Below are positions 3,222-57,566 of a DNA stretch of 64,000 nucleotides, piece by piece. The position numbers and the translations under genes were made by a program. Each line of letters opens with the position of its first letter. Position 1 is the first letter of the stretch. The DNA comes from a virus, in IMG/VR virus record IMGVR_UViG_3300034082_001419, positions 57,495 through 121,494 of that record; one strand, 5' to 3'. The notes under the pieces are model-generated. The model saw only the letters and a list, made by a program, of their open reading frames with translations. It ran no database searches and was not told the origin of the DNA.

Positions 3222-4070
3222 TTAAGCTCTATTATAAACAAACTGAACAATTGTCCAACAAGCACCTGGATACTCAGCAAGTTTAACAGTTTGATCTAAT
3301 GCATATGGAAATGCTAACTCTTGATCTTCTGATTGTATTTTAACTCCAGTTACACAATTAGTTAATTCATATGTATAGTAACAAGGAATATCACCATCAC
3401 AAAAAAGATTATTAGTAAAAATCTGATAATCAGTTCCCGTAACTGATGGATATGAACTTGAACAAATTACAGCTGGTGCATCAGTAGTTGTAAACTCACT
3501 ATAGCCATCAAAATATGTTATAACACCTGTTCCAGTAACTGTATAACAAATTGGTTCACATTGGTCACAATATGCATCACCATCAATTATTACAGTAGTA
3601 AGATCACCAACAGTTTCTGGTACAACTGTAACATACCAACATGGATTTGGTTCCAAGTAAGTATATGCTAATTGATTAATATAGTTTATACAATCTGGAC
3701 ATTCTTGATAATCAGTATATATTACATCACTATTTATACAATTAACTAATTTATATTTATACTGTGAACAACTACTACATGTATTATAATAACCTTCACT
3801 TGCTTGAGCAATTTGAGCATTAGTTATTGCATTTGGATAATAACCTTCTCCTACTGCTTGCCAACAATACGGAGATATATTACCATTAATGTTTAACTTG
3901 TAAACTTTATTAAATGTATAAGTTAATACTGGTTGTATTATTCTATAAACAGTATTTACTGTTGGATCACAAGATACAAAATACACAACAGTTGAACCAG
4001 CATAATCTTCTAAATCAAAATCAAAATTGAGAAATCTTTCTCTTTCACCTGTATATAAATCTAATCTCAT
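3222..4070 (-). CDS. Cys-rich repeat virion protein (repeats paralogous to 2163-3200)
   Basis: YKLVNC, YELTNC, CW and CxxC units. Confidence 0.6.
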   Translation of the reverse strand: MRLDLYTGERERFLNFDFDLEDYAGSTVVYFVSCDPTVNTVYRIIQPVLTYTFNKVYKLNINGNISPYCWQAVGEGYYPNAITNAQIAQASEGYYNTCSSCSQYKYKLVNCINSDVIYTDYQECPDCINYINQLAYTYLEPNPCWYVTVVPETVGDLTTVIIDGDAYCDQCEPICYTVTGTGVITYFDGYSEFTTTDAPAVICSSSYPSVTGTDYQIFTNNLFCDGDIPCYYTYELTNCVTGVKIQSEDQELAFPYALDQTVKLAEYPGACWTIVQFVYNRA

Positions 4071-39944: not shown

Positions 39945-40898
39945 TTAATTATAACTTAACATTTCTACTTTCAACTTTGGATAGCTATTATAACCAACCA
40001 AACTAAAGTCTTGTAAAGATAATGAATTTATTACACTATTAAAGTTTAAAGCTGAAGGATTATCTAAAAAAAGTTTAAACTTAGATTTATCTATTTCTAG
40101 TTTACTTTCTCCATGCAATTCTGTATCTCTAAACATTAACTCTTTAGCTACATTGATTTGGTTATCATATATATGTACATTCTTAAGTTCTCCTATTACT
40201 GCGCTACATTTATATCCTGTCATTATTTCCAGTACTTGTGCTAGTGCAGCATAGAACATTATGTTAACTGGAGTACCTAAGAAAAAATCTGTAGACCTTT
40301 GATTCCATACAAGATTGAATGTGTAAGTATCATTTACAGGTTGACATATTACCTGGAAAGAATAATGACACGGAGGCAAACACATATCAGGAAGATCTGC
40401 GGGATTCCAAGAGTTAACGATTAATGATGTTGACATAGGAGTTTTAATCATGGAAGAAACAAGGTTAAATAACTGATCAACTCCATTGGCGTTTCTCCAC
40501 TGATGAGAATAGATCTTACCCATATCATAAACTTTTGATACAGATGCATCCTTGTAGTCTTCCTTATTTGATTTCCAACCTTCATATAAATAATTTGCTG
40601 CAGACTCTGAATACTTATGAAAGTGTGCCCAATCTTTATCCCAGAATCTAACACCCATTTCCCAAAGCTTTCTTATATCTGTAGAACCAGACATAAAGAA
40701 TATCAACTCTGCTATTGCTCCTTTAAAATAAACCTCCTTAGTGGTTAATGCTGGAAACCCAACACTTGGTCTACAATATAAATTGATCATAGATATCTCT
40801 ATCCTCTCAACTCCTTTTCTATTTGGATCCTGATACTTATATCCTCCATAATAGATCTCCTCTAAAATCTTCTTGTACTGTCCATCAAATACTGCCAT
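39945..40898 (-). CDS. thyA: Thymidylate synthase
   Basis: FPALTTK, LPPCH, QRSTD, NVHIYDN motifs. Confidence 0.9.
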   Translation of the reverse strand: MAVFDGQYKKILEEIYYGGYKYQDPNRKGVERIEISMINLYCRPSVGFPALTTKEVYFKGAIAELIFFMSGSTDIRKLWEMGVRFWDKDWAHFHKYSESAANYLYEGWKSNKEDYKDASVSKVYDMGKIYSHQWRNANGVDQLFNLVSSMIKTPMSTSLIVNSWNPADLPDMCLPPCHYSFQVICQPVNDTYTFNLVWNQRSTDFFLGTPVNIMFYAALAQVLEIMTGYKCSAVIGELKNVHIYDNQINVAKELMFRDTELHGESKLEIDKSKFKLFLDNPSALNFNSVINSLSLQDFSLVGYNSYPKLKVEMLSYN

Positions 40899-40910
40899 GC
40901 TTTCCTTTTT

Positions 40911-41012
40911 AAAAAAACAAAGCCCTGAGTTTTTAATTCAGAGCTTTATAACCATCAATCAATTAAATAAAATAAATGAACCGTAAACATCTATATTACG
41001 GATGTAAAGATA
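40911..41012 (-). ncRNA. Candidate antisense sRNA complementary to the leader/start of 47633-48109
   Basis: Near-consensus TATCTTTA promoter, 5' hairpin ccgtaa/ttacgg, 3' terminator hairpin plus U-tract; ~47 nt similar to 47586-47637. Confidence 0.5.
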
Positions 41013-41018
41013 AGTATT

Positions 41019-41282
41019 TTATACCAATTCTTTATAAAATTTTTCAAATATTTTTTCAGACATTATAGAAAACTGTTCCTCCCAGTCCTGTATAATATAG
41101 TCCCCCTGGTCAACTCTGAATTCTTTACCCCCTATCTCAATCCATAAAGTAGAAAACTTTTTCTGTCTGTAATCAACCATACCTTCAAAGTCTTCTCTAC
41201 TTGCAATCTCTAATGCCATCTTCTCTGTACCATCATATTGCATAGCCTCAATAGTTCTTGGTCTCTCTGTATATAATTTCAT
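41019..41282 (-). CDS. Hypothetical phage protein (IEAxQ...GDYI family)
   Basis: IEAMQYDG...GDYII...IFEKFY. Confidence 0.65.
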   Translation of the reverse strand: MKLYTERPRTIEAMQYDGTEKMALEIASREDFEGMVDYRQKKFSTLWIEIGGKEFRVDQGDYIIQDWEEQFSIMSEKIFEKFYKELV

Positions 41283-41580: not shown

Positions 41581-41655
41581 AAAACAAAATCCCCAGACTG
41601 GCATCTGAGGATCTTCTTACCTAACAACATAAGTTTTTATTAACGCACAAATATA
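41581..41655 (-). ncRNA. Candidate small RNA unit paralogous to 38798-38879
   Basis: TATATTTG promoter (41655-41648); shares cttaccta and aaaacaaaatccc..cagact with the 38.8 kb unit; terminator hairpin. Confidence 0.4.
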
Positions 41656-41891
41656 ATAACATTGGTGCAATAATAGATAACATTTCCCGGTTATTTCACC
41701 CCGCACATTATCTATTGTGGCACCAATACGGGGATATACTCTTAATAGGGGGATGGTTTTTGTGCATGCATTACTTTGTGATGGAGCCTCCATACAGAAC
41801 CCCCCACCCCTTCCGCTCCTAGGTGGTACCCCCTATGCTTCGCATAGTATCCAACTCATAACTATATATGAATTACTAAAAAATATCTACT

Positions 41892-43279: not shown

Positions 43280-43359
43280 ATAATTAATTTGACACAATAT
43301 ATTATATATAATAATCAAATTGACAGTACTATCCCGTAGTATATAATCAAATTGACAGT
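43280..43359. repeat. Three iteron-like direct repeats ATAAT(C/T)AA(A/T)TTGACA
   Basis: 43280 (degenerate), 43311 and 43343 (identical 17-mers); spacing 31-32 bp. Confidence 0.6.
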
Positions 43360-43801
43360 GATATAATAGTATATACAATAGGTACAATTAGTATTAAAGA
43401 AGATACAGGAGCATCATTAGGATATAATGGTCTAATGATAATATATCTGGTACAATAAGGATAAGCTTGAAATAGTTTTATCCAGCCTGTGGACAAAGTA
43501 GACTTTGATACTGGTAATCAGGCTATTATCTTTTGAGATAAATATAAATTGTGGGTGAATGAGAGGGTGAAAGAGTAGGACTGTCATACTTCCACCTAAA
43601 TAAACACTTGAGATAGTCTGCATAAATGCCTGATACAGACAATATAATAAGAAATATATAGCTAAATGAGTGAGTATGCACTTATATGACTATATACACT
43701 AGTATTATCTATAGTGTTATTACTCTTATTAGTATTAGTACTATAATGAAAGAAAGTATTATAGTATCCGGTTTCTTAAAAATTCAACTAAAAAATATAA
43801 A

Positions 43802-45984: not shown

Positions 45985-46089
45985 AGTGGTATGGCGGAAT
46001 TGGTAGACGCTAAATTAATGGGTGGATAGCGTGCCATTGGGGTAGAACCAAGAAAGTTACGTGTACAGGTTCGAGTCCTGTTGCCGCTG
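45985..46089 (+). tRNA. tRNA-Leu-like element with aberrant/expanded anticodon region
   Basis: Acceptor AGTGGTA/TGCCGCT, D-arm GCGGAATTGGTAGACGC, T-arm ACAGG-TTCGAGT-CCTGT; ~50-nt central part. Confidence 0.6.
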
Positions 46090-47536: not shown

Positions 47537-47544
47537 AATCTTAA

Positions 47545-47583
47545 CTTGGGAGTGTAGACCAAGGAATAGCTAAAATCATACAC
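47545..47583 (+). promoter_or_regulatory. H-type pseudoknot in mRNA leader
   Basis: Stem cttgg/ccaag; loop gtgta pairs with tacac at 47579-47583. Confidence 0.45.
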
Positions 47584-47632
47584 AACAATCAATTATAAAA
47601 TAAAATAGTGTTAACCGTAAAAAACATGTATT

Positions 47633-48109
47633 ATGGAATCAAAAGTTAAAGTTACTGGTGATGAACTAGGTAATGTTATCTATCAGTCAGTAAACAATCC
47701 TGAGTATGGATATGTAAGAGTAGAACAAGTTAGATCTATGTATGATGACAACTCATTCTTAAGAAGAAGAGTAGTTAGTGCATTAATACAAGGGAGTATG
47801 GAAGACTTGAAACAAGAAGGTTATTATCTTGGTCAGGATTTACCAGGAAAAATTGCCATTATTGAATCATTGAACCCAACAAACAAAAAAGACCATACTA
47901 AAAACATTAAAACTGCAGGTAATACTGGAGTAGTGTGTAAAGTAGGTAATAAACCAATTTATAGAAAAACTATCTATACAATCATTACTAATGTAACTGA
48001 TGAATTGGTTAAGCATGATAATGTGGATGAAATTAAAGCAGCTAATAATTTAAGTAGTATTAGACCGTCTGCAATTCATCCGTCAGCATCAAGTGAGTTC
48101 AATATTTAA
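47633..48109 (+). CDS. Putative single-stranded DNA-binding protein
   Basis: Beta-rich with aromatic residues; ends EFNI; own terminator; pseudoknot leader. Function is inferred. Confidence 0.4.
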   Translation: MESKVKVTGDELGNVIYQSVNNPEYGYVRVEQVRSMYDDNSFLRRRVVSALIQGSMEDLKQEGYYLGQDLPGKIAIIESLNPTNKKDHTKNIKTAGNTGVVCKVGNKPIYRKTIYTIITNVTDELVKHDNVDEIKAANNLSSIRPSAIHPSASSEFNI

Positions 48110-56742: not shown

Positions 56743-57566
56743 AAAATCAAGTAATTAAATGTCTTACACCAGAACATGGTAAAAAGATAATAGAGTATTG
56801 GAAATCAAAAGGTGTTGATACTGGTATTAAAACAGGTAAACTTTGTGAATCTGATAATGACTATTATATTTATTATGGTGTTATTAATGGTAAATTTGAT
56901 AACTACTCATCAATTGATGTACAAAGAGAAAATGCTGAAATAATTGAGTTACCAGAAGATGAATTTGACATGACTACTAATGAAGGTAGATCAGCTTATG
57001 CTAAAAAACATTATCCAGTAGGGACTAAATATAAATCTTTATATAGTGGTCAAGAATTAATTGTTGGAAGTTATGATGGTCATTTATGTCTCCAACCAGA
57101 AGGTATATGGAGCGTATATGACTTTCTTACCAATAAATGGGCTGAGATTATTGAAGATAAACAAGAAGAAAAAGTTATGGAAACACAAAAATTATCAAGA
57201 AAAGGTCTTAAAGAAATACATTCAGTAGCTTGTTCAGCATGGAGAGAACAATTAGAAGCAATGGGTTATAGAAATCCATTAGAAGATTATATTGAATTAA
57301 CACAAGAACAAGTTGATACAATGTTTAAAGCTTGCACTAAAGAGCAATTACCAATTGTATCTAAGTATCTTAAACAAGATGATGGTAGTGTTGATATAAG
57401 TAAAGTTACATATGGTAATCATGGTATACTTTTAGGTAGTGCTTATATTGTTAGACATGATGCTTTTACTAGTATAAAAAATGGTTTTTGGTTAAATCCT
57501 GACTTTAATTGGGAATTTAAAATAAATGGTGATTATCAATATTTAATACCAACTAAAAAGAAATAG
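56739..57566 (+). CDS. Modular hypothetical protein
   Basis: AKKHYPVGTKY...KWAEII module. Confidence 0.6.
   Translation: MKNQVIKCLTPEHGKKIIEYWKSKGVDTGIKTGKLCESDNDYYIYYGVINGKFDNYSSIDVQRENAEIIELPEDEFDMTTNEGRSAYAKKHYPVGTKYKSLYSGQELIVGSYDGHLCLQPEGIWSVYDFLTNKWAEIIEDKQEEKVMETQKLSRKGLKEIHSVACSAWREQLEAMGYRNPLEDYIELTQEQVDTMFKACTKEQLPIVSKYLKQDDGSVDISKVTYGNHGILLGSAYIVRHDAFTSIKNGFWLNPDFNWEFKINGDYQYLIPTKKK

Follow-up and report, generated by a model that had tools for sequence, protein, structure and literature searches.

Does the intergenic gap upstream of thyA in a phage known from lake water encode an RNA that pairs in trans with the start region of a gene 6.6 kb away? The question is raised by IMG/VR virus record IMGVR_UViG_3300034082_001419, a record of 121,494 bp with direct terminal repeats and a GC content of 31%, whose DNA is present in many lake-water runs. 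The stretch analysed here, referred to as the window, is the right-hand 64 kb of this record (64,000 nucleotides (nt), positions 57,495 to 121,494), and all coordinates below are those of the window. The gap itself (40899-41018) is flanked by thyA and by an open reading frame (ORF) of 87 amino acids (aa), termed p87, both on the minus strand, and the gene at issue is the plus-strand ORF that starts at 47633. The plus strand of the gap resembles the leader and start codon of this ORF, and an RNA read from the minus strand of the gap is complementary to them. The tentatively favoured explanation is a trans-acting antisense RNA against the start region of ORF 47633, made either as a separate small RNA (sRNA) or as part of the 3' untranslated region (3' UTR) of p87 and derived from a partial copy of the target's own 5' end, which is quite possible although we would stop short of calling it probable.

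Complementarity between the gap and a distant start region

When the gap was aligned locally with 47537-47660 (match 2, mismatch -3, gap -5/-2), its plus strand fell on 47582-47649 with a score of 44, in blocks split by short indels; owing to these indels the pair is absent from the output of an ungapped repeat finder. The initial annotation had described a block-by-block match that stops at the ATG of 47633. The alignment upholds the match and carries it across the start codon and ~15 nt beyond, so that it reaches from ~-50 to ~+15 of the target ATG and ends, on the side of the gap, at the p87 stop codon. The score is the top match of the gap in the window on either strand, the runner-up being 31, and was reached by one of 300 dinucleotide shuffles of the gap (mean 32.7, standard deviation (sd) 2.8). 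The 121-kb genome has exactly two copies of a composite motif of CAATCAATTA, AAATAAAATA and AACCGTAAA, which share the plus-strand orientation.

At the RNA level, the minus-strand core (41012-40950) is predicted to pair with the leader at -40.2 kcal/mol, and values down to -42.7 kcal/mol were obtained for the segment 40947-41012; the duplex has ~45 base pairs in the window, small bulges, and helices that include AACCGUAAA and those next to the AUG. Comparison of the duplex energy with shuffled controls, which had been proposed as a check on the pairing, gave a mean of -18.1 kcal/mol (sd 3.45), and none of 1000 shuffles reached -40.2 kcal/mol, whichever partner was shuffled. The match is real and lies far above shuffles. 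Score and energy alone are nevertheless not unique in an AT-rich genome, where a like match could be met by chance when the whole window is scanned, and the weight therefore falls on conservation in relatives.

Conservation and pairing in related phages

Six close relatives of the target protein (74-83% identity) are encoded on viral contigs, 10 were found in metagenome contigs, and a wider profile search gave 154 matches, of which 80 were kept. Over the ~50 nt that precede the ATG, 14 related loci of the close clade hardly differ, though the sequence further upstream has diverged. On the side of the gap, a 17-base pattern matched 18 viral contigs, all 18 of them at a homologous gap upstream of thyA; with the window's own, these gaps make up 10 distinct variants, which share an unchanged 21-nt core. 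The spacer between this core and the terminator of the gap is not alignable between lineages; p87 stays beside the gap in relatives. As the gap core and the leader are conserved while neighbouring sequence varies, both elements appear to be under selection.

The search from the leader was less specific, since a 15-base leader pattern matched 116 stretches, mostly in unrelated records. A metagenome scan added two long contigs, both of lineages already known, and the target gene was found in none of 10 tested fragment contigs that carry the gap element. In distant relatives, searched for 10 kb on either side, the best same-strand matches of the leader were start regions of other plus-strand genes and not antisense units.

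Four lineages hold both sites, namely that of the window, G001/G002 (L003), the L005 contig and L006/L226. Partner screens of 3276-3354 windows per locus, covering both strands, returned the minus-strand RNA of the gap as the top partner of the leader in all four loci (Table 1).

Table 1. Predicted pairing between the gap minus-strand RNA and the leader in four lineages (energies in kcal/mol)
Lineage	Own leader	Next unrelated window	Mirror gain	Pairs kept
Window lineage	-40.7	-29.2	5.5	45/45
G001 (L003)	-39.0	-31.2	9.5	44/45
L005	-36.5	-30.3	10.0	38/45
L006	-34.6	-32.8	0.7	33/45

The mirror test in Table 1 sets the proposed pairing against that of the plus-strand gap RNA with the minus-strand leader RNA; because perfect Watson-Crick duplexes would tie, the difference between the two reflects G-U against A-C. 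The proposed pairing was better than its mirror by 5.5-10 kcal/mol in three of the four lineages. This asymmetry, together with several mismatches that are compatible with G-U, bears out the earlier suggestion that a number of the substitutions would be wobble pairs in an RNA duplex. The antisense segment of L006 pairs with its own leader at -33.7 kcal/mol and with the other three at -22.3 to -28.7 kcal/mol; the window-type segment pairs about equally with all four leaders.

A hand count of the changed cells in the pair comparison gave 12 that keep the pair, 10 that break it and 10 gaps. Changes that keep a pair are mostly one-sided, to or from G-U, and two-sided changes are seen only in the poorly aligned outer flank of L006. 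Covariation across relatives, likewise proposed as a check, therefore came out divided: the pairing persists in all four lineages, but the central helices contain no clear two-sided compensatory change. Taken together, the comparison of lineages speaks mildly for pairing as RNA, with the strands as proposed, on the strength of very few independent events.

The minus-strand element in the gap

Viewed from the minus strand, p87 precedes the gap and thyA follows it; on the minus arm, the gap comes behind the first two small genes. Since both flanking genes are on the minus strand, transcription through the gap is likely, and a transcript of p87/thyA that crosses it would carry the antisense sequence. 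The unit in Table 2 can accordingly be read equally well as a separate RNA or as p87's 3' UTR.

Table 2. Features of the gap, the target gene and the flanking genes
Feature	Position	Strand	Description
Candidate antisense RNA unit	40911-41012	-	Promoter-like box, 5' hairpin, open AU-rich stretch, terminator
Antisense segment	40947-41012	-	Complementary to leader and start codon of ORF 47633
Proposed -7 box	41005-41012	-	TATCTTTA at 41012-41005; weak evidence
5' hairpin	40981-41001	-	CCGUAA/UUACGG stem (41001-40996 / 40986-40981), 9-nt loop
Intrinsic terminator	40911-40949	-	12-bp stem (40949-40917), 9-nt loop, U run to 40911
Target region	47583-47650	+	A-rich leader, AUG 47633-47635, first codons of ORF 47633-48109
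Target ORF	47633-48109	+	158 aa; OB-like beta-barrel model, disordered C-terminal tail; candidate single-strand-binding protein (SSB)
Stem-loop element	47545-47585	+	Directly upstream of target tract; specific to target gene
thyA	39945-40898	-	PF00303 E 5e-61; phrog_160 E 2.1e-69; adjoins terminator downstream
p87 (87-aa ORF)	41019-41282	-	phrog_419, function unknown, E 2.3e-11

In the predicted fold of the 99-nt minus-strand RNA, a 5' hairpin is followed by an open AU-rich middle and then the terminator; the fold energy of -20.9 kcal/mol (z -3.19) was equalled by one of 200 shuffles. The box, hairpin and terminator that the initial annotation had placed in the gap upstream of thyA are all found there: the ccgtaa/ttacgg hairpin is present as described, and the fold confirmed the U-tailed terminator with its 12-bp stem. 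The 5' hairpin is retained in window-, G001- and L005-type gaps and missing in the L006 type, and in L095 it is weakened by a change from which pairing to a TTATGG leader would gain. In all lineages, 12 nt separate the end of the terminator from the thyA ATG, and the terminator stem is kept through wobble-to-Watson-Crick and G-C-to-A-U changes, as read from the variant sequences. It is missing from the listing of a pattern scan because its 9-nt loop exceeds the 8-nt limit of that scan.

The gap had also been described as free of ORFs. This is correct for the minus strand, which has no ORF of at least 20 aa, but not for the plus strand, where three short ORFs touch the gap; one of these (40976-41068, 30 aa) has its ATG within the matched block and runs antisense into p87. 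Rfam at gathering thresholds returned a tRNA at 45985-46089 as its sole match in the whole window, and permissive scans of both sites reached at best 18.3 and 14.5 bits against thresholds of at least 33 bits. The tRNA match, on the plus strand, scored 31.5 bits against a threshold of 29, and ARAGORN found no tRNA anywhere in the window.

The target gene and its leader

The product of ORF 47633 had been labelled an SSB, a name that the comparisons do not uphold. Neither the protein nor its 28-member alignment had an SSB family among Pfam or PHROG matches, the profile search of the PDB gave one match to an unrelated protein (E 0.78), and no match was obtained in the protein Atlas or by tblastn against isolated phages. 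The AlphaFold2 model (mean pLDDT 83.9) contains a small beta-rich domain, with residues 143-158 at pLDDT <50. Its top rows in Foldseek are mostly SSB and PriB proteins at E 0.1-0.45 and TM 0.2-0.4, and VIA-align returned mixed small-barrel proteins with Z <=4.8. Given this weak resemblance to OB-like folds, the target is at most a candidate OB-fold nucleic-acid-binding protein.

The stem-loop upstream of the target tract, seen in the window and at the corresponding place in L003-L085, has arms that differ by lineage yet are complementary, as read from the alignment (GAGTGTA/TACAC, GAGTATA/TATACTC, AGAGTA/TACTCT and TGAGTA/TACTCA). Most of the distant relatives carry GATATAGTA in its loop. Three patterns of the stem-loop, applied to 12 distant loci, mostly gave one plus-strand match, next to the target gene; the exceptions were some loci with none, a second plus-strand match in L035 and one minus-strand match in L014. 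In the wider family (45-55% identity), the stem-loop of the leader is succeeded by (A)ACAATCAATT and a T-rich tract. Every relative has an A- or T-rich tract at this place, and only the close clade has the AACCGTAAA-type leader. Because the stem-loop and CAATC patterns mostly match once per locus, beside the target gene, the leader motif is taken as a gene-specific element. The CAATCAATT element of the leader is present in the gap as well, and since this element is specific to the target gene, the gap copy would relate to that gene. A general promoter class was considered for the shared motif and rejected, as the composite motif has only its two places in the genome and the leader patterns are gene-specific in the 12 distant loci.

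As to structure, the leader can form a CCGUAA/UUAUGG stem over the AUG; its single-sequence fold is no better than shuffles (z +0.35).

Transcription and host

The minus-strand box had been read as a near-consensus Bacteroidota -7 box, and this claim did not hold up. As given in the part of PMC7366714 drawn on here, the Bacteroidetes consensus is TAnnTTTG at -7 and TTTG near -33. The form TAnnTTTA is found 415 times in the genome, and in the window lineage no TTTG was seen at 19-21 nt spacing from the box on reading the sequence. In L006, the corresponding position reads TATATTTG, and a hand count puts a TTTG 21 nt ahead of it; TATATTTG is enriched between genes (8 of 28 sites vs 5% of the genome). 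A promoter of its own is not required for the element, because the RNA may be the 3' UTR of p87. Two other places of the minus arm, 38879-38804 and 41655-41586, consist of TATATTTG, a short stretch and a terminator-like hairpin, and their 3' parts are alike.

Two RNA runs, in the form of contigs of related strains (mostly <95% alike), cover the plus-strand early region from 42.4 to 47.8 kb, the leader included. Of the contigs of run X23, two begin at 47556 and one stops at 47585, positions that need not be RNA ends.

Regarding the host, a phage collection gave no DNA match to the window. The likeness of thyA to bacterial genes is uninformative because the closest ones found have <=35% identity and come from candidate-phyla genomes; the thyA product has 317 aa compared with the 266 positions of the Pfam model. 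On the plus strand, tandem sigma-70 consensus promoters are located at 43320 (TTGACA-16-TATAAT, 12/12) and 43352 (TTGACA-16-TACAAT, 11/12), with a third TTGACA at ~43290, and are followed by ~300 nt without obvious ORF and then a gene at 43686. To judge by these motifs, the promoters at 43289-43380 fit oddly with the assumed Bacteroidota host, and the promoter motifs of the genome give a mixed picture of it.

The start of the plus arm further contains the motif TATCCAACTCA(T/A)AACT at 41848, 42114, 42375, 42640 and 43144 (+), and its first copies are each followed by a short ORF and a terminator-like hairpin. Between the divergent arms of this 31% GC genome lies a GC-rich island (41660-41840) with C and G runs. 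ORF 41617-41793(-), called in the island, may not be a gene, and the island yields strong spurious duplex energies with many intergenic windows.

Alternative explanations

Several observations weigh against an antisense RNA that acts in trans. Among 533 natural 120-nt tiles taken from the window, 22 have a non-self match of at least 44, several of them true repeats, and the pair of gap and leader ranks 7th of 28,336 intergenic-window x start-region pairs genome-wide in an incomplete run, in which the higher-ranking pairs involve the GC-rich island and another repeat family. The L006 gap RNA leads the next window by just 1.8 kcal/mol. When the leader is aligned plainly to its locus in L005 and L006, the result is no better than shuffles (score 30) and the best match is not the gap. 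The lack of clear two-sided compensatory change in the central helices counts on the same side, and because the four lineages share ancestry, the conservation tests are worth no more than one to three independent comparisons. As far as the motifs allow a judgement, the candidate promoter of the window lineage is weak. The contigs of the RNA runs reach the gap at low depth in X23 and not at all in X24, and such contigs show neither strand, ends nor absence.

The count of equally good natural tiles, and the similar duplex energies that some start regions give with AT-rich intergenic windows, would suit a chance resemblance between two independently conserved AT-rich intergenic elements. Such a coincidence is nonetheless highly improbable: the observed values were met by only one of 300 and none of 1000 shuffles, the matched blocks are not of low complexity, the shared CAATCAATT element is otherwise specific to the leader of the target gene, and the gap ranks first in all four lineages. 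Another alternative is a relic of duplication, that is, an old partial copy of the leader and first codons of the target which is conserved for a local role at p87/thyA (3' UTR stability, terminator context or thyA leader) and whose complementarity is unused in trans. The gap block could then serve the thyA/p87 transcripts, with the likeness to the leader inherited from the duplication. A match that covers the target's 5' end and stops at the p87 stop codon is what a truncated copy would leave, and neither thyA nor p87 was found in five of five near-complete distant relatives, an empty answer that alone proves nothing but would make the module and the gap element clade-specific. The lack of a clear two-sided change in the central helices and the shuffle-level alignment of L005 and L006 agree with this as well. 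What makes an unused relic unlikely is that the conserved part of the gap is the complementary part while the adjoining spacer is free to vary, that the differences are biased towards the G-U-compatible direction, that the L006 segment fits its own leader best, and that no antiterminator alternative to the terminator stem was seen in the fold.

The similarity could also be read at the level of a binding site, with a phage regulator that recognises the ~45-bp motif (CAATCAATTA, AAATAAAATA, AACCGTAAA) at both places without any RNA pairing. The two copies, their common orientation and their conservation in relatives are consistent with such a site, which is quite unlikely for other reasons: the motif is long and has indels of unequal length at the two sites, a poor arrangement for one protein footprint, a DNA site predicts no mirror asymmetry whereas three of four lineages show 5.5-10 kcal/mol, and no candidate regulator was identified. 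The gap may alternatively be a promoter-proximal terminator module like the pR'-6S RNA-tR' arrangement of lambda, where a short RNA would be a by-product unless an antiterminator permits read-through into thyA and further genes downstream. The constant position of the terminator before the thyA ATG speaks for this, as do the TATATTTG and TTTG at the start of the unit in L006 and the two further minus-arm units of the same layout. As a full account it is very unlikely, for it leaves the conserved match to a leader 6.6 kb away unexplained and no antiterminator gene was identified; it is, moreover, compatible with an antisense RNA and does not exclude one. The block could finally be the start region of a plus-strand peptide gene of 30 aa (ATG 40976, MNRKHL), alike to the target because start regions are alike in style. 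The ORF exists, its first six codons are kept in all variants by hand translation (two synonymous changes in L006, one replacement in L005), and start regions of plus-strand genes do resemble each other in distant relatives. Yet the ORF has 11 codons in L006 against 30 here, replacements are frequent past codon 6, it runs antisense into p87, a hairpin that would stop plus-strand transcripts lies directly upstream, and the sole nearby plus-strand promoter match is weak (9/12) and would start transcription after the ATG. A peptide gene is thus extremely unlikely.

Proposed mechanism and origin

For the trans-acting antisense RNA, the following course can be proposed. Minus-strand transcription would start upstream of p87 or at a weak promoter just after p87; both versions of the transcript would end at the terminator before thyA, and their last ~100 nt would carry the antisense segment (~60 nt). 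The open AU-rich middle and the 5' hairpin of this RNA would then meet the open A-rich leader, and zippering would produce ~45 pairs across the ribosome landing site and the AUG. Such a duplex would block ribosome entry and, being long, would probably be open to double-strand RNases. The leader, which is abundant, could also sponge the antisense RNA, as the direction of regulation is not readable from sequence.

Concerning the origin, a partial duplicate of the target's 5' end may have landed in the p87-thyA module, where it would be read from the other strand and then retained by selection. Partial duplication would be the simplest and most likely origin of the gap copy.

In its original form, the proposal was of an sRNA from the late arm that blocks translation initiation of an early/replication gene. 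Its complementarity, sRNA-like layout and kept pairing have stood, while the promoter box, the SSB label and the contrast of a late arm with an early gene are not supported.

Comparison with known systems

Antisense RNAs of phages that block start regions are a known kind. The c4 RNA of P1/P7 and the CI RNA of P4 are phage antisense RNAs that act in trans on a transcript of their own phage, in temperate-phage immunity. The likeness to the present case is that a trans antisense RNA blocks expression of a complementary transcript of the same phage. The difference is that c4 and CI use short paired blocks and are processed from the same operon, whereas here a 121-kb phage with terminal repeats has a predicted pairing of ~45 bp and a replication-type target.

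The leader of ORF 47633 also invites comparison with the operator of T4 gene 32, in which an open A/U-rich tract stretches from a structured element to the AUG; the leader here may have this layout, before a gene for what is at most a candidate single-strand-binding protein. In T4 the repressor is the protein itself; here a second layer, of RNA control, is proposed on the same tract. In the pR'-6S RNA-tR' arrangement of lambda, a promoter, a short terminated RNA and a terminator stand directly upstream of an operon as they may do before thyA. The 6S RNA is not known to be complementary to a distant start region, and no antiterminator is known here.

A bolder reading combines these features: the lake phage would control an SSB-like gene by a chaperone-free, AU-rich trans antisense RNA of ~45 bp with a partial-copy origin, overlaid on a gene-32-like operator, and the unit may be one of several of the same promoter-RNA-terminator layout on the minus arm that time replication genes. 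In this full form the proposal is doubtful.

Among the cases covered in the part of PMC12197685 drawn on here, phage antisense RNAs that have been studied are mostly cis-encoded or come from temperate enterobacterial phages. OOP and aQ of lambda and sar of P22 are cis-antisense RNAs, sar blocking translation initiation of ant (PMC12197685). They share with the present case a long complementarity to a start region or coding end, a translational block and decay of the RNase III type (PMC12197685). Their complementarity is automatic because they are transcribed from the strand opposite to the target; here the antisense copy is 6.6-10 kb away, and the match must be maintained by selection. The trans-acting prophage sRNA DicF and the Bacteroides sRNA GibS are similar in being short RNAs with an intrinsic terminator that pair with the 5' region of an mRNA (PMC12197685, PMC7366714, in the parts drawn on). 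They differ in having host genes as targets and short seeds, and no sequence or Rfam relation to them was found. Bacteroides is described in the same part of PMC7366714 as being without Hfq and ProQ, and AT-rich unstructured sRNAs there may need extended seeds, a precedent which is relevant only if the host belongs to the Bacteroides phylum. The 6S RNA of lambda is listed as an Hfq-dependent phage sRNA (PMC12197685). Table S1 of that source lists 38 phage sRNAs of unknown function, which may bear on novelty; in a limited literature check, no comparable case of a trans-acting phage antisense RNA turned up.

Biological significance

If true, three aspects of the proposed RNA would set it apart, namely that it is trans-encoded yet has a length of complementarity like that of cis-antisense RNAs, that its target is of replication type in a large terminal-repeat phage, and that it probably originated by partial duplication. 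A virulent-type phage of an uncultured freshwater group would then use a trans antisense RNA to control how much of a core replication protein is made, or when. The locus would also illustrate a simple birth route for such RNAs, in which a partial duplicate of the target's 5' end comes to be read from the other strand.

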